Source: Negaprion brevirostris
Taxonomy: Eukaryota
Direction of reading: 5' to 3'
NCBI GenBank assembly: GCA_030324005.1
Contig: JARDVH010000084.1
Span: 39,142,465-39,206,464, forward strand
DNA length: 64,000 nt
Shown: positions 699 to 39,930 of the stretch, piece by piece
How positions within the stretch are numbered: the first letter of the stretch is position 1
Layout of the letters: each line of letters starts with the position of its first letter
Made by a program: the position numbers and the translations under genes
Notes under the pieces: model-generated
Seen by the model: the letters and a program-made list of their open reading frames with translations, nothing else
Database searches by the model: none
What the model was told of the DNA's origin: nothing

Positions 699-876
699 CT
701 CAATAATTTTGTCCCCTGTCTTCAGAGCTTTGGATCTTCCAGCTGGACTGTCCTCTAACACATGTTTAATAAAAATTCCNNNNNNNNNNNNNNNNNNNNN
801 NNNNNNNNNNNNNNNNNNNNNNNNNNNNNNNNNNNNNNTTCCAAGTGATTCTCCCGGTTCTCGCCAAAGCTCAACC
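699..876 (-). CDS. PATJ: PATJ-like exon, PDZ equivalent to PATJ PDZ6 / MPDZ PDZ7 ([12 protein letters not shown]-[gap][27 protein letters not shown])
   Basis: ttctag|G acceptor, GAG|gtaaat donor; 178 nt, phase 2/0. ALKTGDKI is PATJ-type. Internal 59-N gap preserves frame. Confidence 0.92.
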
Positions 877-4641: not shown

Positions 4642-4713
4642 CATCTTGGTGCCTCCCAGTGACTTATGACTGGGGTTTCTTCTCCCTCGCCTTCTTCTCT
4701 TTCAGGCAGTTCA
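4642..4713 (-). CDS. PATJ: PATJ-like exon ([23 protein letters not shown])
   Basis: ttttgaccag|T acceptor, TG|gtaaga donor; 72 nt, phase 2/2. Close to recalled human [27 protein letters not shown]. Confidence 0.92.
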
Positions 4714-7746: not shown

Positions 7747-7866
7747 CTGACAGCAGTTTTCATCCTGGTTTCTGATGCCAATATTGCAGCACTACCGGGC
7801 CTGGTTTGTTTTGATGAAAAACTTCTTTTATAGTCTTCCACATCTTTTGCAGGTACATAGGTAACC
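7747..7866 (-). CDS. PATJ: PATJ-like exon (VTYVPAKDVEDYKRSFSSKQTRPGSAAILASETRMKTAV)
   Basis: ctag|G acceptor, AG|gtattt donor; 120 nt, phase 2/2, matching both neighbours. Resembles MPDZ ITYVPAEHLEEFK, the end of PDZ6. Confidence 0.8.
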
Positions 7867-8392
7867 CTAGATTCCATACCCACCCCAAAGGAGAAGAAGT
7901 TATTTAAAAAAAACACTTTAATCAACACATACAAAGGTTAGATCACAATACGCAATGAGACACTGGTCTCCACAAAGTCCACTCCACTAACAGCCCAACT
8001 AATTTAGAGTAGGCGGTCAGATCAAGAAGCTGTGATTTTTGATCCTTAGACTAACTGTTCTGATGTAAGGAAGCAGGAGAAGTGCTAAAATTTGCCTCAT
8101 GAATCAGCGAGGATAAATAAATGAACAAGTCATTTTTACTTCCACTTTTTATTTGACTGCAAGTATCTGCATTAGGGTAGAATTGGGATTGCTATGATCA
8201 AAACAACACTGACATTTAATATTAAGCCTTATAAATGAACCACTGTCACTTGGGAAAGCTAAGGGTTCCAGAAGGCATCAGGATGTATGATCACAAGCAA
8301 ATGGATGGTGTTTTCAGGTTAAGAGAGAAGAGGAAAAATTGGCAGACAAAACTGGTAGGCTTTCTCCTAATAAATTCACTAGTACCAAAGTA

Positions 8393-8720
8393 CATAAGAA
8401 CATAAGAAATAAGAGCAGGAGTAGGCCATCTAGCCCTTCGAGCCTGCCCCGCCATTCAATAAGATCATNNNNNNNNNNNNNNNNNNNNNNNNNNNNNNNN
8501 NNNNNNNNNNNNNNNNNNNNNNNNNNNNNNNNNNNNNNNNNNNNNNNNNNNNNNNNNNNNNNNNNNNNCATTCCATCCGGTCCTGAGGACTTGTCCACAA
8601 TCAGTCCCTCCAGTCTGTCGAGCACCGCCTCTCTAGTAACAATAACGTCACTGAGACCCTCCAGTCCTACCGCCTTTCCATCGCTAACACCCGGCAAATT
8701 ATTCACGTCCTCCTCCGTGA
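8393..8720 (-). mobile_element. CR1 LINE fragments (3' tail and ORF2 linker), split by a gap
   Basis: (cataagaa)n tail with aggccatctagcccttcgagcctg. Minus-strand translation LDRLEGLIVDKSSGPDGM is typical CR1 pre-RT sequence. Confidence 0.8.
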
Positions 8721-8723
8721 GTA

Positions 8724-8778
8724 CAAACATATATAACAAACATATATACAAACATATAAAGTACAAACATATATAAAA
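8724..8778. repeat. Short imperfect tandem repeat (ACAAACATATAT-like) x4
   Basis: Directly visible. Confidence 0.7.
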
Positions 8779-10002
8779 CTTCACTAATACCTACAATTTA
8801 AATAAACTATTAAAAACAAACACACAAAAGCAGCATTCACTTTTCTTCTCTTACAGCCTCCTAACATGTATCAAGCTCACCACTTTTGCAATGCACACAG
8901 GCACAGTGAAATTAGTGATTTAAGGACCAACAAAAGTTATCAGGCCAAAGATTTTGCTTATCCATAACAAAATCAACTTGCATTCATATTCCAATGTGTT
9001 TAACAGAGGTGTAATTTGACAAAAATGATGAGCTTTGAGCTATGCTATCTTATGACTTACATCAAGGATTGCCCAGTCTCCATTTGGAAGGTGGCCACAA
9101 GCAATAAGCTTTTACTAAACATCTGAAACTGCCTTTTACAATCTTAACTTTCAGCCTTTGTCAGTTTGTACACAACTACGTAACTGCAGCTAATCATCTC
9201 AACCAGACCCTTCCCTTTTGGAGACATAATCCTTATTAGAAGTATCACATTCTGTCATCTTGATTGATCCCTCTGGTTTGCCCCTTACCTCTGCTCCCTA
9301 AAGTCAATGGATGCTAAGTTCATATGTCGGCAATCCGTCTACCCATTCACTATTAGATCTGGCGGTACCACACAAAGCTCTATCAGACTTACTCTCATCT
9401 GGCAAAATTGCTCACTCTAATCTAGGATGATCTTGGAATAAAGCTAATAACCAGCTTTGGTTTAGCAAATACTTTAGAATGATCACACTCCAGTGAAGCA
9501 TCTTGGAACACGTTTCTAGGTTAATGGCACTGTGCAGGAAAAAGTTATTGTTTGAAACTCTGGTCAGATCTTGAAACATCTTCAGTGACTTTCGAGTAGC
9601 ATCCATTCAAGCATTGGAATTTTGATAATTCTACTTAATCCTCATGCAATACTCATTCTTTTTCATTGAATGTTCCGGTATTGGTCACCATTACCAGAGC
9701 TGTAAGCAATTAGTTTAGTTTAAATTGATCCGATGAAAGGAGAATTGAGAAGGTCGAGAATTAATTCTCAATACTACACTTTTATCTTGGACAGATTCCA
9801 CTGTTATACATAATCTACCTTCCAACTTCAACAATATATTTTAGTATAGTTACACAAAAAGACAAGCAGTCAACAGTGCACCAACTATAGTACTCCACCA
9901 TAAACATCAAAAATAATTAAATTTAGTTCGAGCAAAATTGCTTACTGACAAATGGAAATGTGTAAACTGAAATTTAGTTGCAATATTCGAACCAGTTGTT
10001 TT

Positions 10003-10322
10003 CATAGAACATTACAGCGCAGAACAGGCCCTTCGGCCCACGATGTTGCGCCGACCAATTAAAAAGCAATGACCCTCTANNNNNNNNNNNNNNNNNNNNN
10101 NNNNNNNNNNNNNNNNNNNNNNNNNNNNNNNNNNNNNNNNNNNNNNNNNNNNNNNNNNNNNNNNNNNNNNNNNNNNNNNACCTCTCGGCCCAGCTCTGCA
10201 ACTTGTCCAAGTCTCTCTGTAAACTATGACACCCCTCCTCACTATCTACCACACCTGCGACTTTGGTGTCATCAGCAAATTTACTAATCCACCCAACTAT
10301 ACCCTCATCCAGATCATTTATA
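10003..10322 (-). mobile_element. CR1 LINE RT C-terminus and 3' tail, gapped
   Basis: [33 protein letters not shown]; tail catagaacattacagcgcagaacaggcccttcggccc. Confidence 0.85.
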
Positions 10323-10633
10323 GATTTTCATCCACAAATTAAAGCATAGTGCGGTGTACTTTGGGTTACAAATATGAGCAAGCAAGAATTTCCAATTTGA
10401 AGTGAACCACAAAATAAAAGGCATCTATTGAATTGTCTTAGCGCATCATTTCTCAATTTCTCTATTCACAAAAATAAAGTGTATTTATTTCACAATCAAA
10501 ATCCTCTTGACATTTGTTAAATGATTCAGGTTTGTAACAAAAACATGAGCAGATCTACTGTCATGAAACTAATAATTTATAGCAAGTTGAAGGGGAGAAA
10601 AACAGCTACCAGTACAACACAAGAAATACTCAC

Positions 10634-10829
10634 AAAATTTTTTCAGTTAAGGCTTTGTTGGCAAAGACAAAATGTGTCTGAGCAGAATTTAGACCACAAA
10701 TGGATTCCTTGTTCACAGCAACAATATAATCTCCTTCCTGGAGCTGTCCATCTTTTCCAGCAGCCCCCTCATTATTAATACGCTTGATAAATGCCCCAGG
10801 TCCTCTCTGATCATTTTTTATATTCAATC
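10634..10829 (-). CDS. PATJ: PATJ-like exon, body of the extra PDZ (GLNIKNDQRGPGAFIKRINNEGAAGKDGQLQEGDYIVAVNKESICGLNSAQTHFVFANKALTEKIL)
   Basis: ttttacctag|GA acceptor, TT|gtgagt donor; 196 nt, phase 1/2, matching both neighbours. PDZ signature GAAGKDGQLQEGDYIVAVN. Confidence 0.88.
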
Positions 10830-11233
10830 CTAGGTAAAACAATAATAATATTCATACAAGGATATTTTGCTGCAACTTAAAATAACACAACAGAGGATGA
10901 ATGCATTCTATGCTGTACAGACTGATTATTCTGTAAGTGCAAATATACACAAAAAAAGGCAAAGCACAACTCCTATGGCCACAAACACCAAATTCCACGC
11001 CAAGCCAGATACAACAGATAACATAATTAACAGTCACTTACAAGAACTTTCATATGACAGTTAAAAGATAATCCTTTATTAGCAAGTGAAAGCAAACAAG
11101 CAGACAGGAGCTTAGATTTTATCAATGTTATTTTAAAAGTTCCCTTTTCAAGTGAGTGAGTAATTGTCAGAACTGAGATTAATACTGATTAGGAGAACCC
11201 AGATTCCAGATTTCTAAAGATACTGGCACGGAG

Positions 11234-11331
11234 GTTTTCTGCTCCAGCTAAAATGGTGCATCAACTACTCTATCCATAGTGGCCTGGAGTCATGCCGTTT
11301 CCCATAAGTCGGTGGGAGGGGAGCAGAAAAC
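11234..11331. repeat. Small MITE-like element with 12-bp inverted repeats
   Basis: gttttctgctcc (11234-11245) and ggagcagaaaac (11320-11331). Confidence 0.4.
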
Positions 11332-11522
11332 AGCTGTAGCTGGATGTGTGACTCGCAACCTTGAGTAATATACAAGATTATTAGCTACATTATCTCTGAA
11401 AGAAACTAGCAAAAATGTGTATTACAAACTTAGAAAAATAAATTTAAAAAGCATGAAAATATTACAGATTAGAAATAGAGATGGCAATACATCTTTGCAT
11501 TCTAATTGATCAGAGATCAACA

Positions 11523-11831
11523 GGCAGCACGATGGCACAGTAGTTAGCACTGTTGTCTCACAGCATGAAGGACCCCGTGTTCGATTCCCAGCTTGGGTCA
11601 TTGTGTTCGGAGTCTGCACATTCTCCCTGTGTTGGCATGGGTTTCTTCTGGGTGCTCCGGTTTCCTCCCACAGTCCGAAAGACGTGCTAGTTAGGTGCAC
11701 AGGCCATGCTAAAAAACTCTCCCTCAGGATACACAAACAGAAGGGAGAGTGTGGCGTTTAGGGGATTTTCATAGCAACTTGATTGCAGTGTCACTATAAG
11801 CCTACTTCTGACAATAATAAATAAACTTAAA
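11523..11831 (+). mobile_element. tRNA-derived V-SINE (HE1-like)
   Basis: Same family as 2853-3143, opposite orientation. Confidence 0.85.
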
Positions 11832-12824
11832 ATATATGTAAACATAGATAGTCACGTAGCAACTTGGAGTAGTTACAGTTATTGTCTAGATAGACAAGGA
11901 GCAATTTTGCCAGGCCTTGCCTTGCTCTCCATCACTCCATTCAAGGAGCACCTTGGATAATTTTCAGGCACTGGGCCAATATATGACTAGATATAGGTCA
12001 AACACCCAATTAGAACTGTTTGAGGTATTTGGGTTGTCCTAAGTGCAGCAAGGAACATGCTTCCTCCACTCAGGTTTTTCATGCACATATTGCTTGAAAC
12101 TGTTTCAATAAATGCTTTTGTTTGATGAAAATCTTAGAATGAAGCAATTCTAAGAGAACACAGTAAAGAATTTCTTCACTTATTGAACTTGATCAGTGGA
12201 AAGCATCCCACAATGGTATGACACTATGCTAACTTTCAAACAGCTGATTTTTAAAAAATCAGCGATGTTCAACCACATTTCAAGCTGTATCTATCTCTTA
12301 CCCATTCTTTCATGTACAAGTGCCAATGAAAATCTCTATTTCGAATATTCCTTTTTAAATGTTAAAATTACAATTAAATGATCAGTATTTCCAACACCAA
12401 ATGTTAGCACCCTACGATGGAACACACTTCAACAGATCCTATTTGATTCATAATAATGCTTATGTAGGAGCTATTGGACATTGTAGTTAATACAAAATTA
12501 CTCAATGAACATTTTGCCTTATTGCATTCATCATAGTAGATGTTACTTCCCATAACTGATGTATTTCTTCAGCTGCCAATTAAATGAAATGTCATTAAAG
12601 TAAGTCAAGTAACACTCCCTTTCCCCAACCAAATCCTCTCCTTCCTTTCATATCAAATGAACAATTATCACACTTACCCTGCCTGTTAAATTTTAAATCG
12701 TCATGGATGTTGAGTGCATATCCATGCAAATTCAGTATAATTCAGAGACAGATCTGAAGAATGAAGAAAGAAATTCCACATTCTAAAATAATAAAACTTT
12801 CCTGAAGGAATAGTATAGTTGTTT

Positions 12825-13365
12825 TTCTTATTCTTTCATGGGATGTGGGCATCTCTGGCAAAGCCAGCACTTATTGCCCATCCCTAATTACCCTTGAACT
12901 GAACATTTCAGAGGATGGTCAAGAGTCTACTACATTGTTGTGGATCTGGAGTCGTATGTAGGCCAGAACAGGACAGGGACAGATGATTTCGTCCCCCGAA
13001 GAATATTAGTGAACCAAATGGATCCTTGCAATAATCAACAATAGTTTAATGCTCACCATCACAGACTAGTTTTATGCAGCAGATTTATTAACTGAATTTA
13101 AATTCCACCATAATTGTTTTTTACCCCATTTCACAGAGTTTTAGACTGGGCCTCGAGGTTGCTAGTTCAGTGACATCACCACAATCCTTCACTGTCGCTG
13201 GGTCAAAATCCTGGAACTCTTTTCCTAATAGCATTGTCAGTGTATCTACACTACATGGCATGCAGTGGCTTAAGAAGGTAGCTCAACACCACCTTTTCAG
13301 GGGCACTTGCAATGGAAAATAAATACTGGACTAACCAGTGATACCTATACATCATGAAAGATTAA
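12825..13365. mobile_element. Second tRNA-SINE family (minus, ~12825-13180) plus LINE 3' fragment (plus, ~13185-13365)
   Basis: ttattgcccatccctaattacccttga tail; matches the plus-strand SINE at 57870 and the LINE tail at 19000-19170. Confidence 0.6.
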
Positions 13366-14384
13366 AAGTGAGTGACAATCGAGTTTGTGGAACTGTTGTA
13401 TGTTCAATGTGTTTGTACATCACAAAACATGCTAACTAGATTAATCTCAAGCTATGCATTGTCGCCTTTTTAGTCAAAGTTCACTCTCTAAATTTTCCAC
13501 TGATATCAAAATTAACCAGTCACATGTTGAGAAAGCTTTGTCGAAATATCTGCCATGTCACTGGCATATGTCACTCCCATTATATATTTTAGAAGTCACA
13601 AAATGTATCCACTCAACCCATATGCCATTTAAACATATTCCTAAACATCTTCTTCTTCTCTTAGGCTTTCCTATTTGTTCTCAGCTTTGATTATTTCTGC
13701 TAGTCTTTTGTCATGATGTACCATCTTCTTTTCCTAACAGCATTGTGAATGCTACACCAGACGGACTGCAGTGATTCAAAAAGGTGGCTCAAGGGCAATT
13801 AGGAATGAGCAATAAACGACGGCCATGCAAGCTGTATTCACATCTCATAAAAGAATTTAAAAATCGACAAGCAAGCTTTTCCCACCCTTCTCACCAGCAG
13901 GATCTTCTTGCCCTGTCAAGGGCGCACCCCTGCTGTGGGTTTCCTGGTGTAGTGGGTTTCCTGGCAGCAGGGGACAGATTCAATTTGAAATTCCTTTGAC
14001 AGCTGTGGAATTAGAAGATCCCACCACCATTCAATGACAGGCCACCCCCCTCTACTAAGCTGCCAACTTCCCTTTTGAACAACTGTAGCTTCATACAATG
14101 CATACACATCACATTTCAGACATCTGCATATCCACATCCAATCATTTTCTGCATCTTCGCCCAAGATCGTCACAGCAGCAAGAATAGCTATAGCTTTCTC
14201 ATTATCCAGAAGCAATGTGACTGTTCTCTACAACAAACGTGGCAGCATTCTCTGTTCAACGCAGCTATGATATGTACTATCTTTCTCCCCAACACAGATG
14301 TTCCAGATATTTCCTTGGAATGTTCTTAGACCACTGAGCCATGCTTCCTGGCCACAAATTTCCACCTCCCCAGTGGGGGTTCAG

Positions 14385-14980
14385 AATTTGATTTCATTTC
14401 ATTTATTATTGTCACATGTATTAATATACAATGAAAAGTATGTTTCTTGCGTGCCAAATAGACAAAACATGCCGTTCGTAGAGAAGGAAACGAGAGAGTG
14501 CAGAATGAAGTGTTACAGTCATAGCTAGGACGTAGAGAAAGATCAATTTAATGCAAGGTAAATCCATTCAAAAGTCTGACAGCAGCAGGGAAGAAGCTGT
14601 TCTTGAGTCAGTTGGTACATGACCTCAGACTTCTGTATNNNNNNNNNNNNNNNNNNNNNNNNNNNNNNNNNNNNNNNNNNNNNNNNNNNNNNNNNNNNNN
14701 NNNNNNNNNNNNNNNNNNNNNNNNNNNNNNNNNNNNNNCTTAAAAACTTGAAGATCTCCACTCTTTCCACTTCATCCCCATTGATGTAAACAACGGCATG
14801 TTTTTCTTTATGCTTCCTGATGTCGATGACAATCGCCTCCGTTTTATTGACACTGAGAGAGAGATTATTGTTGCCGCACCAGTTCACCAGATTCTCTATT
14901 TCATTCCTGCACTCTGTCTTGCTATTGTTTAGGATCCAATCCACTACAGTGGTGTCGTCAGCAAATTAAAAAGTCGAATT
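14385..14980 (-). mobile_element. Rex1/Babar-like LINE RT and 3' end, gapped
   Basis: FADDTTVV; EIENLVNWCGNNNLSLSVNKTEAIVIDIRK..VYINGDEVERVEIFKFL. Same tail recurs at 54684-54910. Confidence 0.75.
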
Positions 14981-15910
14981 GGAAGGCAATAGGTCTCTTC
15001 TCAACTGATGACTGCAATCCCCTTAACCCCAGAGCATATTGTTTACCATGCTTGTGCATAATTTGCTTTATAGTGAAGCAAAGAGATAGAATTCAAATAC
15101 AAAAATACAGCAGCATGCATTGGAGATGTAATGGTGGCATATCTCAGACACAACCTTTCCTAATGCCCTAGTTTACTTTCAACATTTTCCTCTGTCATAA
15201 GTAATTGCAGATAGGCTCACGATTTTACAGTAGAATGCAGTTAAATATTTTTCAAAGTAATTTTCTTATTTGCGGACGAGAAAATTTGACTATTACCAAA
15301 TGGCAGTTCTAAATACAAGTTGGTTGCCTCCATGTGTTTTGGAGAAGTGAATATAGTGCTATGTTCCTGACTGCCTATACTTATATTTTAATAGCATCCT
15401 GAAGTTCTTGAAATACTGCCATATGAAAGTTTGTAGCCTCACTGTTAAAATTGACAGTTTTAATGAAATATGAATTATCTTCTGACACAGTGCTTAGATG
15501 AGCTGCATTTATATGCTGCACTCCACATGGAGAAACAGCCTAAGGTGCCTCTGTGCCAATATCAAGAGAAGAAGCCGAGCCCCCAAAGAAGGAGATTTAA
15601 GAAGAGGCATTTAAAGTCTTGGTTGAGGAAGCAGGTCTTAAGGATGAACGTTAAGATGGAATTTTAAACACCAGTATCAAGAGTTTAAAAAAAGGTATTT
15701 TGCTAATGTGGGACAACTGAGGAAGCTATATAAAATGGGCATAGTCAGAAGTAGTGGGCCGGCGGAGAAGTTAAAGGGATAAAAGAGCTTATAGACAAGG
15801 GGAGGGGTTCTTGAGAGCAGATTTATTACAATGGCTTTGAAATGGAGAGAGAATGGCAATAAACCATATCCAATGCCAGCCAACAGGGGCCAAAAAATAG
15901 ATTTTATATA

Positions 15911-16190
15911 GTTTTTATTTTCATTAGTGTCACAAGTAGGCTTACATTAATGCTGCAATGAACTTGCTGTGAAAAATCCCTTAGTCACCACACTCTTGCC
16001 CCTGTTCAGGTACACTGAGGGAGAATTTAGCACGGCCAGTCTTTTTGACGGTGGGAGGAAACCAGAGCACCCAGAAAGAAAACACGCAGATGTGGGGAGA
16101 ATGTGCAGCCTCTGCACAAGTAGTGACTGAGGCTGGGAATCGAAGCCCGCTCCCTGCAGCTGTGAGGAAGCAATGCTAACCACTGTGCTG
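15911..16190 (-). mobile_element. tRNA-derived V-SINE (HE1-like)
   Basis: Same family as 2853-3143, with an internal deletion. Confidence 0.85.
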
Positions 16191-17359
16191 ACAAACTTCC
16201 CCAAAAGAGAAGTGGCCGGAAGTCAAGCACAAATATGGTCAAAACAGCAAGAAAGGATTATGCCAAATGTGTTTAGAAGGGCTGAAATGATGGTGGCAAT
16301 TGTTGCCAAAAGAGCAGAGCTGTTGCTAAAAGTTACGGCTGATCTACAAGTGGTTAATTCCCCACAATTCACAAGCTATCTAATGACATTGAAGAGACCT
16401 TGTTGAAAATTTCAGAAGTACTTTCAGTCACGGCAGCAATAGCTATTCTTGTAAGTGGTTTGAGCAGCTAAGTTTCAAGAGTGGGTCATTGTTGTTGAAA
16501 ATCCAATCATACAGTAATGTAACTGAGGAGCATAACTATAGAAATCTTGTGATCAGCTGGAAATTGCGTCTTTCATACAGGTACTTCCTTAATCTTTGAG
16601 CACAGATTAAAACACTTAGCTTGGCGGAGGGGGGGGGGTTAGATGTGAAGAGATATCCAACTGAATAGCCCATATTTAAAAAATAAATAAAAATTTACCA
16701 AACCATTCTGATTAGCCAGGTTCACCTAATGACTTTATGTATCTTGGCACGCCTCACTTCTCACCAGCTCCGAGTGTCAGAGGAGCAATTTACCCTGGCT
16801 AGGCTAAGGTTCCTGCCCAGTCCAACCTTGCTGCACATATATCCCTTTTTGTCTGTGGCCTCTCTGTGTTCCAAGCCAATTGAAGGGCAATCATTCTAAT
16901 TTCTTCCTCAATCAATGACTTTGCAAGGAGATCTAGCAATCAGACATCTTCTCCTCCCTTGGCAAGCAGGTTTAATAAAACATTTCCTATCCTTAAAATG
17001 AACTGCATGTCATTTTATGGATCCCAAATTAAATAACTGAAACTCATGGTCACAGTTCGAAGCAGATATTGAGCCACAACATTCCAGCTAGCTTCAAAAC
17101 ACAATATTGATGTTTGCAACATTTGTTTAAATATATGTAAACCCACTTTGCTTTAAACCACTTAAATAAAACTTATTGTTAAATCTTTCCTTAGAGGAAC
17201 AAAATTCATCAAAAATCCCAAAACTACCAGGAAGTGGCCAACCAAATTCTGTTTCTTGTGTACCATTCTTTGAGACAGTGGAGGCTGTTGTTACATCTTC
17301 TAAATACTCACACTTACAATATCGAAATGGGTTCCTTTCAGAATACACCAAAGGTCTTA

Positions 17360-17590
17360 AATAAAAACAGAAAATCCTGGAAAACTTAGCAGGTCTGTCA
17401 GCATTTATGGAGAAAAAACAGACTTAATGTTTTGGGCCCATATGACCTCTGGAGCACTGAAGTAGGCTCATATGGACTTGGAATGTTAACTCTGCTGTTC
17501 TCTCCATAAATGCTGCCAGGTCTGCAGAATGTTCCAGCATTTTCTGTTTTTATTTCAGATTTCCAGCATCTGCAGTTTTTTTACTTTTAT
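17360..17590. mobile_element. Decayed palindromic element of the family seen at 21081-21612
   Basis: Arms aaataaaaacagaaaatcctgg...cagcatttatggaga and tctccataaatgctg...ccagcattttctgtttttattt, with a decayed hammerhead-like centre. Confidence 0.7.
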
Positions 17591-17619
17591 TAAAGCAGAG
17601 GTTTTAGTTGGTCCTGTTT

Positions 17620-19172
17620 CTGCTGGGATCACTTGGCTTCAGACCTCATTACAGCCTTGGTCCAAATATAGAGAAAATTGTTGAATTCCAAAGGTGAGTT
17701 GAGAGTGACTGTCCTTGAAATCAAGACCACATTTGTCCAAGTGTGGTATCAAGAAGATGTAATAAAATGAAAGTCAATGGAAAGCAAAGGAAAACTCTTC
17801 ACTGGCTGGACTCATAACTGGCTCAAGGGAAGATGGTTGTGTTTGAGAATGGTTTAAAATACCTTTTAAAAAAGATCAACATGACTGTACACTTATTTAA
17901 ATAAACATTGTAGGTATTATGGCTATGATTTGAAGCCAGATGAGCCAATTAACTCAGTCACAGATATTGCTGTTGGTGATCCTCAGGCAGTGTCCCAGGC
18001 TCAACCTCTTCGGCTGCTTCATAAATAACTTTCCTCCACCATAAGTGAAAGTTGGGATGCTTGCTGCTGACTGCAGTGTTCAGTTCCATTTGCAATTCCT
18101 TAGATAATGAAGCAGTCCATGCACACGTGTAGCAATACCTGGACAACATTCAGCCCTAGGCTGATAAGTGACAAGTAACATTCATGCTATGTAAGTGTCA
18201 GATAATCACCATCTCCAATACCCGAAAATGGAATCATCTTCCAATGACATTCGAAGGCATTATACCATTGTTAAATACCCCACAATCAATATCACTGACT
18301 GTCAATTATATCACAGTTGAGTGTTTTATTTAATGGTGGATATTAACAGGGGTTTCAATTAGGCAACTGGAACATATATTGAAGGCACACTGTTGGAGTT
18401 ATTCTGAATCACATCCTAGCCACCTAGCCAAGTGAGTTAACCAGCCCTTTGTGAATAGACTGAAACTCATTGTTGGTGCAGGAGGCATATGCTTGTAATT
18501 TGCATCCCTGTAAATGAAGACTTGAAAGATTAGGCTTCAGTTCTATCCTTCTCCTCTTAGCTATATGACATAGAACACTGACCAGAAACAAAACTGGATC
18601 AGCCATATTAATACAGTGGCTATAACAGCTGATGAGAGGCTGGGAATTATGCAGTGTGTAACATGCCTCCTGACTCCTCAAACCCAGTCCACCTTCTACA
18701 AAGCTCAAGTCTGGTGTGCAATAGAATACTCCCAACTTCCTTCAACAAAACTCTCAAGCACAAGACCATTTGGGTCAAAGCAGCCGCTCGATTGAACTTT
18801 CACTCCTTCCACCATAGCACACGGTGGCAGCAATGTACTATATACAAGATACACTTCAGCAACTCACCAAGACACCTTCTACAGCACCTTCCAAATCAAC
18901 AACCTCTATCAGAAGGGCAGTAAGCACATGGAAAAGCCACCACCTGAAAGTTTCGAAGTCACACATCATCCTGACCTGGAAATATGCCCCCATACCTTCA
19001 ATATCCTTAGGTCAAAATCCTCGAACTCTCTCCCTAACAACAATGTGGGTGTCCCATACACGCAAACTACAACAGTTCCAGAAGGTACTTCATCACTACC
19101 ATCTCGAGTACAATTAGGAATAGGCAATAAATGCTGAGCCTGCAAAGCCTGCAATCCTTGCATGAATAAAAA
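17620..19172 (+). mobile_element. Degenerate CR1-clade LINE (second family) RT and 3' end, interrupted
   Basis: Fragments DLITALVQ..LNSKGELRVTVLEIK..F.QVWYQ and QGSVPG, plus a tail with ggcaataaatgctg. A related minus-strand piece lies at ~36215-36730. Confidence 0.6.
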
Positions 19173-19429
19173 GGTCTTGGAGCAGTTCTGATTTAAGATA
19201 GCAAGTTTGAGTTAATGCTTACCAGAGTTGGGGAGGGACAAAGGTCAGCTTTGTCTATCCATGCTCTACCAAAGACAGTCTTCTGGGAGTTGACATTTTA
19301 AAACAGATAGAGAACCTCATTTTTCTAAGGTTAGTGCCAGTCAATTCATTAACTACTGATTTGTAAACTGAAGCCTGAATTAGGAACAGATTGGAACACA
19401 GTTCCAAATTAAAACGAAGGGTACAATTT

Positions 19430-20142
19430 TGAAGAAGCTGCAGGAACAGAGGGGCTTGGGTGTACATGGGCATAAATCACTGGAGGTGGCAGTGCAGGTT
19501 GAGAGAGCAGTTAAAAAAGCATATAACCTCCTGGACATTATTAATAGGGACACATAATTCAGAGCAATAATTCAGAAGCAAAGGGGTCATGTTAAAATTG
19601 GTTCGGCCTCAGTTGAAGTATTGTGTCCAATTCTGAATGTCACACTTTAGGAGGCATTAGAGTGCAGAAAATATTCATGTGAATGGTCCCATGGATGAGG
19701 AAATACAGTTATTTGTGATAGATTAGAAAGGATAGGACTGTTTTCCTTTAAGAGAAGGTTGAGAGGAAATGTGTAGAGACATGCAAAAGCATGAAGGGTC
19801 TGGATAGAGTAAATAGAGAAAAACTGTTCCCATTCATGGAAGAATCAAGAACAAAAGAACACAGATTTAAGGTAATTGGTAAAAGAAGCAGTGGAGACAT
19901 GAGGAAAAAATTCCATATAGCGATTGATTAAGATCTGGAATGCACTACCTGAGGGCATGGCGGAAGCAGAGTCAACTCAGACATTCAAGAAGGAATTGCA
20001 TTATTATCTGAAAAGGTAGAATATGCAGGGTTAAGGAGAGAAGATGGGGAGAGGCACTAGGTGAGTTGCTCATTTAGAAAGCCACTGCAGATGCAACAGT
20101 GTGAATGGTCTCCTCCTGTGCTGTAACAATTCTGTGATTCTG
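19430..20142 (+). mobile_element. CR1 LINE 3' portion
   Basis: LGVH.HKSLEVAVQVERAVKKAY; VRPQLKYCVQF; CR1-type tail ggtctcctcctgtgctgtaacaattctgtgattct. Confidence 0.8.
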
Positions 20143-20531
20143 AAGACTAAGTCATGAGCTTTGTTAAAGAGAGTTAGTATTCATAGGGAAAATTGAGGTT
20201 TATGAAGGAAAATCTGAATCATAGAACATTACAGCGCAGAACAGGCCCTTCGGCCCACGATGAAAACAAACGAGCTTTTCACTTGATTTACTGATTTGTT
20301 TATTCTATTAGCATACCTTGCACCCATTTTACACCCAAATAACAGGCAGAACATATGCCAATTCCTAATAGAAATGTTGCACCTGAAATGCTATTGCAGT
20401 TCTGGAAGTAGTAAGTACTGTACCGTTACTGAATGTTTTGAGCATTTTTGTATTATGGATGTATTCATTTATTGAAAGAAGACAAGGTGACAATTGAACA
20501 CAGTACATAAGTTATTTAACATGGGTCAAAC

Positions 20532-20679
20532 CTAGATCAAGGCCATTTCTCATGATGGTGACAGTTCGTTCATAATCTTCAGACACCAGCCTTTGGTCAC
20601 TGCCTTCTGCATATGTAAGGGAAGACAAGGAAGCTCCACTGAACTTCCCTTCNNNNNNNNNNNNNNNNNNNNNNNNNNN
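20532..20679 (-). CDS. PATJ: PATJ-like exon, start of the extra PDZ (...EGKFSGASLSSLTYAEGSDQRLVSEDYERTVTIMRNGLDLG); 5' boundary uncertain (within N gap 20653-20679, or at 20699)
   Basis: Donor CTA G|gtttga (phase 1) joins in frame to the exon at 10829. ERTVTI..LDLG resembles MPDZ ERTVTIAKG..SLG and the PATJ remnant SLDLG. Confidence 0.75.
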
Positions 20680-31436: not shown

Positions 31437-31775
31437 CTCGCTTGCATTATTGTCTTGCAATAATTGTGAAGCATTAAGTATTTGATCATCAGCTGTTTTT
31501 ATGTTTGTTGGGATTGTCAGCTCAGAATATTCCAATTGATCGTTTATATGTTGCTTGTCAACATTTTCATAAATTAGCTGTTCTAGCTCATTCTCATCAT
31601 CCACCAACATTTCCCGCTCTTCATTTCCCTGGCTCCACTGATCTCTTGCAAACCTCTCTGTTGGCCCAAATTTAGCTTCACTGCCAGCCCTGCTGGGACA
31701 TAAATCCAACAACTCTAAATGCGGCTCAGGTTCATCAACTAGTTCTTCTTCGGAAAATGAAGCATCTTCAAATTC
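31437..31775 (-). CDS. PATJ: PATJ-like acidic linker exon (EFEDASFSEEELVDEPEPHLE...GNEEREMLVDDENELEQ...LLQDNNASE)
   Basis: ccaatag|GAA acceptor, GAG|gtaaga donor; 339 nt, phase 0/0. EELVDEP and EEREMLVDDENEL match recalled human PATJ EELVDEP and EEREILVDEEYEL. Confidence 0.88.
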
Positions 31776-34860: not shown

Positions 34861-34980
34861 ATGGGGTACTGGTAGATTTGAGGAATAATCTAAATCCAAT
34901 ATTTCTGAGTCATCCCTTTTATTCTCTGTGGTAGCAGTTATGCTAGTGAAATCTGAATTGTCATTTTCATTTGCTTCCGT
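34861..34980 (-). CDS. PATJ: PATJ-like linker exon (TEANENDNSDFTSITATTENKRDDSEILDLDYSSNLPVPH)
   Basis: ttttcttctcag| acceptor, CAT|gtaagt donor; 120 nt open frame, phase 0/0. Size and position fit the ~40 aa acidic segment that follows PDZ5 in human PATJ. Confidence 0.75.
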
Positions 34981-39720: not shown

Positions 39721-39930
39721 CACCATTGGTTTGCAGATGCCAAGGCGGACTTTGCCAGTCGGAGCGTCTTTCAGAGCCTGAACAGCTTCCCCCAAAGCAG
39801 TATTCTCTAGATTGTGGTCATTGACAAAGACGAGCCGATCCCCGGGTAGCACCCTGCCATCACATTCAGCAACCCCACCAACCACCAAAGAGCGGATAAC
39901 AATAACAGTACGTGCGGGATCTAAAGGATC
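39721..39930 (-). CDS. PATJ: PATJ-like exon, C-terminal part of PDZ5 ([70 protein letters not shown])
   Basis: ctgcag|GAT acceptor and GTG|gtaagc donor; 210 nt, phase 0/0. Clear PDZ motifs. DPLDP and GICKP match recalled PATJ PDZ5 rather than MPDZ (DPIDP...GVAKP). Confidence 0.92.

Follow-up and report, generated by a model that had tools for sequence, protein, structure and literature searches.

PATJ, also named INADL, is described in human as a scaffold of the Crumbs complex with an L27 domain and 10 PDZ domains (PMC2173254, PMC9006659). PATJ acts at tight junctions and binds its partners via its PDZ domains (PMC6928914, PMC2173254), and its paralogue MPDZ, or MUPP1, carries 13 such domains (PMC2173254, PMC9006659, PMC8405222, PMC3162930) in addition to an L27 domain. 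The two proteins share partners; tight-junction formation needs PATJ, whereas MUPP1 is dispensable (PMC6928914). PDZ8 and PDZ9 of PATJ have been matched to PDZ10 and PDZ11 of MUPP1 (PMC6300352). Here we analyzed a window of 64,000 nucleotides from the shark Negaprion brevirostris (assembly GCA_030324005.1, contig JARDVH010000084.1, positions 39,142,465 to 39,206,464), in which part of a multi-PDZ gene lies on the minus strand. An earlier note, made from the letters alone, had proposed that this gene is PATJ and that it retains one extra, ancestral PDZ domain equivalent to PDZ6 of MPDZ, kept in cartilaginous fish and eroded in the mammalian lineage. Our analysis provides good support for a broader conclusion: elasmobranch PATJ keeps the full ancestral array of 13 PDZ domains, of which PDZ6 is the fastest changing and is no longer intact in any of the other jawed lineages sampled. 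Domains are numbered below as in MPDZ.

Can the extra domain be read from spliced exons? We confirmed three PDZ-encoding exons (A, B, and C; Table 1) on the minus strand, with splice ends read from the sequence. The donor of exon A, after position 20532, is GT, and exons B and C both have AG/GT ends. The exon phases are 1, 2, and 2, and joining the exons by their coordinates yields an open frame with no stop and the same peptide that the earlier note had assembled. Position 20679, which had been taken as the start of exon A, is no exon boundary: the 5' end of this exon runs into a short stretch of N, so that the acceptor is unseen, and the readable coding part begins at 20652. In all four public runs examined (four studies, four organism codes), a single contig carries exons A, B, and C contiguously. 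These are contigs rather than raw reads and the RNA type was guessed, none of the matching runs being recorded as RNA, so that no level of inclusion can be derived from them. The matched segments are 7747-7865, 10633-10828, and 20531-20652, the one-base shift being due to a G that can be assigned to either exon at each joint, and window and contigs differ by 0 to 5 letters per exon. Because the introns are absent from the contigs, a spliced A-B-C form exists; the exon joins, which had been named beforehand as a test that could refute the proposal, bear it out.

On its own, exon B passes the Pfam PDZ family PF00595 (35.2 bits against a cut-off of 23.2; E value, 1.6e-8). With 13 position-specific profiles built only from 10 MPDZ and invertebrate proteins, the window peptide scored best on the position-6 profile (57.9 bits, covering profile positions 2-85; second best, 43.9 bits). 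In a tree of 92 domains, each of the 13 positions formed its own clade, and the window domain fell in the PDZ6 clade with a support of 100/100. Within that clade, the window domain grouped with PDZ6 of catshark, sawfish, and coelacanth PATJ in a subclade (100/98) that stands apart from MPDZ; it thus descends vertically from a 13-domain ancestor. The single-copy MPDZ/PATJ proteins of amphioxus, a crinoid, the brachiopod Lingula, and the mussel Mytilus, which serve as a pre-duplication outgroup, have 13 PDZ domains in the same order, PDZ6 included, each grouping with its vertebrate counterpart. The sequence comparisons therefore support the identification of the extra PDZ, between PDZ5 and PDZ7, as the ancestral counterpart of MPDZ PDZ6, as had been proposed.

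An AlphaFold2 model was obtained for the corresponding part of the catshark protein (89% identity across exon B; 17-row alignment). It predicts a complete PDZ domain, with a mean predicted local distance difference test (pLDDT) score of 86.5 and a predicted template modeling (pTM) score of 0.78. The model has six strands, alphaA, alphaB, and an extra C-terminal helix (residues 90-103) encoded by exon C; the element names and the numbering of alphaB follow general PDZ usage, applied to the catshark model. All Foldseek matches listed for this model were PDZ-bearing entries, with template modeling scores of about 0.7. Together with the Pfam score, the model agrees with the earlier reading of the spliced exons as a full PDZ fold. 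Sequence searches of the PDB returned generic PDZ matches and none to an MPDZ PDZ6, and the ESM Atlas returned only generic PDZ clusters. A search for representatives with exon B returned mostly multi-PDZ proteins through summed weak matches and was useful for outgroups only.

Is the gene PATJ or MPDZ? Two homologue searches were dominated by bird and rodent MPDZ; the closest proteins were 18 shark and ray clusters, all of them named "inaD-like protein" in RefSeq. We built a tree from the 11 PDZ domains that every vertebrate PATJ shares, omitting domains 6 and 9, in which the window row filled 11% of the columns. The PDZ5 and PDZ7 exons of the window were placed among sharks (97 to 99% identical to two of them over the filled columns) and in the PATJ clade with a support of 100/100. 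The order within this clade was that of the species tree, with the chimaera as sister to elasmobranchs, followed by coelacanth, opah, frog, and amniotes. Forcing elasmobranchs to group with MPDZ was rejected by the approximately unbiased (AU) test (P = 1.9e-36), and a whole-protein tree, made in a quick version only, agreed on the placement. An MPDZ orthologue was thus rejected. The PATJ-type motifs GICKP, EELVDEP, and ETP..SHW surround the extra domain, and MPDZ differs there; the flanking motifs on which the earlier note had based its call are all present (GICKP at 39741-39727, EELVDEP at 31748-31728, EEGEGEETP at 4697-4671, and ALKTGDKI at 728-705). The L27 domain was found in the three shark relatives scanned, the N terminus lying beyond the window. 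The likeness to described PATJ extends over orthology, linker motifs, and RefSeq names. The trees support a PATJ orthologue, with shark MPDZ outside them.

The position-6 domain was found in all 18 elasmobranch protein clusters, with scores of 45.6 to 62.6 bits. All 13 MPDZ-type domains were present in 13 of these clusters and 12 domains in four, and one cluster is truncated; automatic Pfam assignment likewise gave 13 PDZ stretches in three shark proteins. The region is spanned by 85 isoform models from elasmobranchs; 81 have the whole domain, and the remaining four, from four species, skip exon C. Shark PATJ also retains the counterparts of PDZ9 and PDZ13, which brings the count to 13; the claim of one extra domain was therefore correct for PDZ6 but understated. 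This sets elasmobranch PATJ, with whole counterparts of MPDZ PDZ6 and PDZ9 added, apart from the published 10-domain protein, which is the human form. Judged from these protein models, retention of a whole PDZ6 in PATJ is an elasmobranch trait, and sharks and rays likely preserve the ancestral 13-domain form. The elasmobranch PDZ9 counterpart, encoded beyond the window, shows 91% identity between shark and ray (row P0001, 1402-1482).

Outside the elasmobranchs, a whole copy of PDZ6 was found in none of 21 PATJ rows, and in none of the 19 among bony vertebrates. Only the first third of the domain is left in the chimaera (11 bits), and it is broken in all nine models spanning the region, so that the proposed retention in cartilaginous fish holds for sharks and rays but not for chimaeras. 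Because the chimaera is sister to elasmobranchs, PDZ6 was lost at least twice independently. The coelacanth copy covers profile positions 2-73 of 99 (60.9 bits) and has lost two residues after betaD, Asn and Glu, that are invariant elsewhere; its exon C is absent in both RefSeq releases. In the paddlefish, a weak loop region and a visible piece of exon C remain, with the middle gone. These differing lesions, read from gene models, suggest more than two losses. A short loop-betaB remnant scored above all 200 shuffles in four of four mammals (camel, bat, anteater, and hamster, on which our statements about mammals rest) and in five of six birds, at low scores of 2.8 to 11.1 bits; it was undetected in opah, three frogs, and a gecko. 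The LDLG motif of the remnant is still in place in mammalian PATJ. The mammalian linker measures 281 to 291 residues in three full models, compared with 318; as it is not shorter by a whole domain, PDZ6 was lost by erosion in place. The suggestion of erosion in mammals was thus right as far as it went, but the loss is not specific to them: with a broken copy in the chimaera and no whole copy in any bony vertebrate sampled, erosion is far older and wider.

The second domain, PDZ9, remains complete in both elasmobranchs and the chimaera but has degenerated in the coelacanth; the paddlefish, birds, and three of four mammals have a remnant of it. The PDZ13 counterpart is present in full-length bony-vertebrate PATJ models. 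Lacking 6 and 9 but keeping 13, most bony-vertebrate PATJ proteins therefore have 11 domains; this number, and not the textbook 10, was found in eight full-length models from teleosts, frog, gecko, bird, and non-rodent mammals (P0136, P0137, P0386, P0388, P0390, P0391, P0393, and P0396). Podarcis and Denticeps were set aside because their PDZ5 region is shortened or broken, which makes scores near PDZ6 uninterpretable, and hamster was set aside as an incomplete model. A lamprey protein (P0132, P0401) is without domains 4 to 6 and retains PDZ9; it joins PATJ on a long branch in a quick tree, and its orthology is unsure.

Of all 13 domains, PDZ6 shows the lowest conservation, with 67% identity between shark and ray compared to 78 to 96% for the others. 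Shark PATJ PDZ6 and bird MPDZ PDZ6 are 31% identical (31 to 33% for MPDZ PDZ6 more generally), whereas the other 12 domain pairs share 47 to 85%. Identity to amphioxus PDZ6 is 40% for shark PATJ and 59% for MPDZ, so that the outgroup domain is nearer MPDZ. Stem branches of PDZ6 in the 92-domain tree measured 0.53 and 0.49 in PATJ versus 0.22 for MPDZ, and the rate of change of PATJ PDZ6 is about double that of MPDZ PDZ6, or higher. Of the positions conserved across MPDZ and invertebrates, 19 of 40 were invariant in elasmobranchs, compared with 18 of 44 elsewhere; this test for preferential upkeep of ancestrally conserved sites in elasmobranch PDZ6 was negative (P = 0.66). Features required for folding are kept: 18 of 21 core columns are hydrophobic in all 10 elasmobranchs, and no indel pattern was seen in 81 PDZ6 residues versus 15 in the 184-residue upstream linker. 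PATJ PDZ4 (row P0001, 552-626), with a stem of 1.11 in the same tree, is a second domain that diverged strongly after duplication.

Residues predicted to form the peptide groove have changed as well. The carboxylate-binding loop is D-L-G-L in 10 of 10 elasmobranchs, its Leu and Gly being invariant in all 17 aligned rows, whereas MPDZ PDZ6 has S-L-G-M. Class I PDZ domains are defined by His at alphaB1, and a non-His residue has been noted there in several MPDZ domains (both PMC7138185). All 10 elasmobranchs have Ser at this position and thus fall outside class I. Six of the seven rows from MPDZ and invertebrates have Asn at alphaB1 and Arg at both alphaB5 and alphaB9. Elasmobranchs instead have Ser at alphaB1, His (sharks) or Gln (rays) at alphaB5, and Ala at alphaB9; two basic residues are missing from the shark helix. 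The earlier note had flagged the DLGL loop and the non-His alphaB1 as signs of a possibly unusual ligand class. Both are present, but a residue other than His at alphaB1 is ancestral and no shark novelty: vertebrate MPDZ PDZ6 has Asn there, and the four invertebrates have Asn or Ile. Shark PATJ PDZ6 otherwise resembles MPDZ PDZ6 in its PDZ5-PDZ7 slot, its clade, and its betaF-plus-helix tail motif.

How might these observations be explained? That the gene is PATJ, and that its extra domain descends from the sixth of 13 ancestral PDZ domains and is paralogous to MPDZ PDZ6, we consider very probable. It is also probable, with considerably less assurance, that PDZ6 of elasmobranch PATJ persists as a folded relic whose constraint is relaxed and whose binding of the canonical kind is weak or absent, as the alignment and the predicted model suggest. 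After the PATJ/MPDZ duplication, MPDZ would have retained the PDZ6 role, and the PATJ copy would have begun to drift at once. Elasmobranchs would have retained the fold, with its hydrophobic core, Leu-Gly-Leu loop, and freedom from indels, probably because an unfolded piece of 90 residues between PDZ5 and PDZ7 is costly, or via weak binding. The alphaB helix, which lines the peptide groove, would meanwhile have been rewritten from Asn to Ser (alphaB1), Arg to His or Gln (alphaB5), and Arg to Ala (alphaB9). In chimaeras and bony vertebrates, PDZ6 would have collapsed to linker at least two times independently through different lesions, and PDZ9 may have taken the same path later, in bony vertebrates only. 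Taken as a whole, this account of a spliced PATJ PDZ6 with its predicted fold kept, its ancestral ligand specificity likely lost, and its constraint relaxed is the one we favor, on balance and with moderate confidence.

Several points weigh against this account. Within alphaB, Ser at position 1 and Ala at position 9 are invariant in 10 of 10 elasmobranchs and Phe at position 8 is found in 9 of 10; such fixed residues fit a new selected function as well as they fit a relic. The groove was read from the alignment and one predicted catshark model, not from the window's own spliced peptide. The states of coelacanth, paddlefish, and chimaera are those of gene models unchecked against DNA, and shark MPDZ, gar, bichir, lungfish, and human PATJ lie outside the protein sample. 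The PDZ5 exon of the window has a raw identity of 72 to 75% to bird and mouse MPDZ but 60 to 69% to bony-vertebrate PATJ. As raw identity favors MPDZ, the PATJ call comes from the tree only and not from best matches; the higher identity to MPDZ reflects rate differences.

A tentative extension, which we regard as rather unlikely in its entirety, would treat PATJ as a natural time series of the decay of folded domains to a disordered linker. Chimaeras, ray-finned fishes, coelacanth, and tetrapods would have lost PDZ6 in parallel, each through a lesion of its own, skipping of the symmetric betaF exon (a minor isoform in four elasmobranch species) would be one stepping stone, and PDZ9 would follow later. 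Only sharks and rays would keep the full 13, their PDZ6 having a rebuilt, non-class-I groove and a ligand of its own. The main rival to a relic, which we judge unlikely but serious, is a change of function, in which PATJ PDZ6 gained a new elasmobranch ligand and has been held by selection. A long stem followed by a short crown (0.49, then 0.09 to 0.22), the fixation of the rewritten alphaB residues across sharks and rays with the Leu-Gly-Leu loop intact, and the near-constitutive inclusion of the domain in isoform models would all be consistent with such a gain. However, conservation is the lowest of the 13 domains and near linker level, and alphaB5 differs between sharks and rays. Moreover, in a tiny and incomplete list, four of five differences between window and contigs change a residue inside the domain, compared to two of seven just outside.

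It is improbable that PATJ PDZ6 still does the job of MPDZ PDZ6, leaving shark PATJ redundant with MPDZ at this position. The shared position, fold, non-His alphaB1, and C-terminal helix motif would be expected of such redundancy, but identity to bird MPDZ PDZ6 falls far below that of the other 12 pairs, and the basic residues at alphaB5 and alphaB9, kept from mussel to mouse, are gone. A gene that is MPDZ after all, or a PATJ to which gene conversion or exon shuffling returned the domain from MPDZ, is largely refuted and hardly credible. In textbooks, 13 PDZ domains distinguish MPDZ, some of the window's exons are nearer MPDZ by raw identity, and shark MPDZ was not sampled; nevertheless, the AU test rejects the grouping, the domain groups with coelacanth PATJ PDZ6 and not with MPDZ PDZ6, the flanking motifs are PATJ-type, and a matching remnant lies at the same place in mammal and bird PATJ. 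That the exons form an unspliced open frame, dead or due to chance, an idea for which one could cite the unreadable acceptor of exon A and the use of contigs, is refuted by the contiguous joins in every run and by the presence of the domain in every elasmobranch cluster. Lipid binding was also considered as a role of PDZ6 and found no support; the affinity of human MPDZ_6 for phosphoinositides is low (PMC3563628).

With tblastn searches using shark proteins and AG/GT bounds, we located in the window eight coding exons, all on the minus strand and belonging to a single multi-PDZ gene (Table 1).

Table 1. Coding exons of the PATJ gene in the window, listed in the order of transcription
Feature	Coordinates	Strand	Properties and evidence
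Exon with 3' part of PDZ5, ends in GICKP	39721..39930	-	210 nucleotides (nt), phase 0-0; Pfam PDZ 39.4 bits; tblastn 91-92% versus shark inaD-like proteins; AG/GT
Linker exon after PDZ5	34861..34980	-	120 nt; tblastn 75-78%; AG/GT
Linker exon with PATJ-type EELVDEP	31437..31775	-	339 nt; tblastn 73-75%; AG/GT; motif not in two aligned MPDZ rows
Exon A, readable part	20532..20652	-	Linker, betaA, carboxylate-binding loop; phase-1 donor; joined to exon B in 4/4 contigs
Exon B	10634..10829	-	betaB to alphaB and start of betaF; 196 nt, phase 1-2; PF00595 35.2 bits; 71-89% identity to 10 shark inaD-like proteins; contigs
Exon C	7747..7866	-	End of betaF, predicted C-terminal helix, linker; 120 nt, symmetric phase 2-2; contigs
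Exon with [12 protein letters not shown] motif before PDZ7	4642..4713	-	72 nt; tblastn 89-96%; AG/GT
First PDZ7 exon (equivalent of human PATJ PDZ6), partly unreadable	699..876	-	tblastn; 90-97% identical to elasmobranch PATJ where readable

No neighboring gene was identified within the window. Between 40000 and 64000, tblastn found no upstream PATJ exon in these 24 kb; either the preceding intron is long or unreadable sequence hides the exon. Several shark and ray models are ~70 residues shorter and without a PDZ5 match, which suggests that the PDZ5 3' exon, itself symmetric, is left out of some isoforms. The 34861/31775 exon joint is spanned by a PxxF motif (PHEF), which can be aligned with PKGF, the Homer-binding motif reported for mammalian PATJ (PMC13389695). 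An origin of the Homer-binding PxxF from the PDZ6 remnant was rejected, as the motif lies ~150 residues upstream. Open frames in the introns resemble, by eye, fragments of long interspersed nuclear element (LINE) reverse transcriptase (e.g., 28656-28327, 14965-14546, 10327-9977, and 8790-8317). Mapping of the public runs gave very high depth from repeats in intron bins.

RefSeq models already contain the extra domain, which is annotated there but apparently unremarked. Our literature search, whose scope excluded subscription papers and supplements, returned no description of a shark or 13-domain PATJ. The main comparison of PATJ and MUPP1 is that of Adachi (2009), and such papers or supplements may contain alignments or domain tables relevant to the novelty of this finding.

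The textbook difference between PATJ and MPDZ is one of 10 versus 13 PDZ domains, and elasmobranch PATJ indicates that it arose long after the duplication. Both copies would have been complete at the split, the difference arising by gradual erosion in place of domains 6 and 9, and part of the mammalian linker between PDZ5 and PDZ6 would be a fossil PDZ domain. PDZ counts can consequently misname PATJ and MPDZ genes. Retention of an ancestral domain in a slowly evolving lineage is expected in kind, and what we describe is a clean case study rather than a new system. For the family, elasmobranch PATJ offers a natural 13-domain PATJ that may serve in rescue tests.

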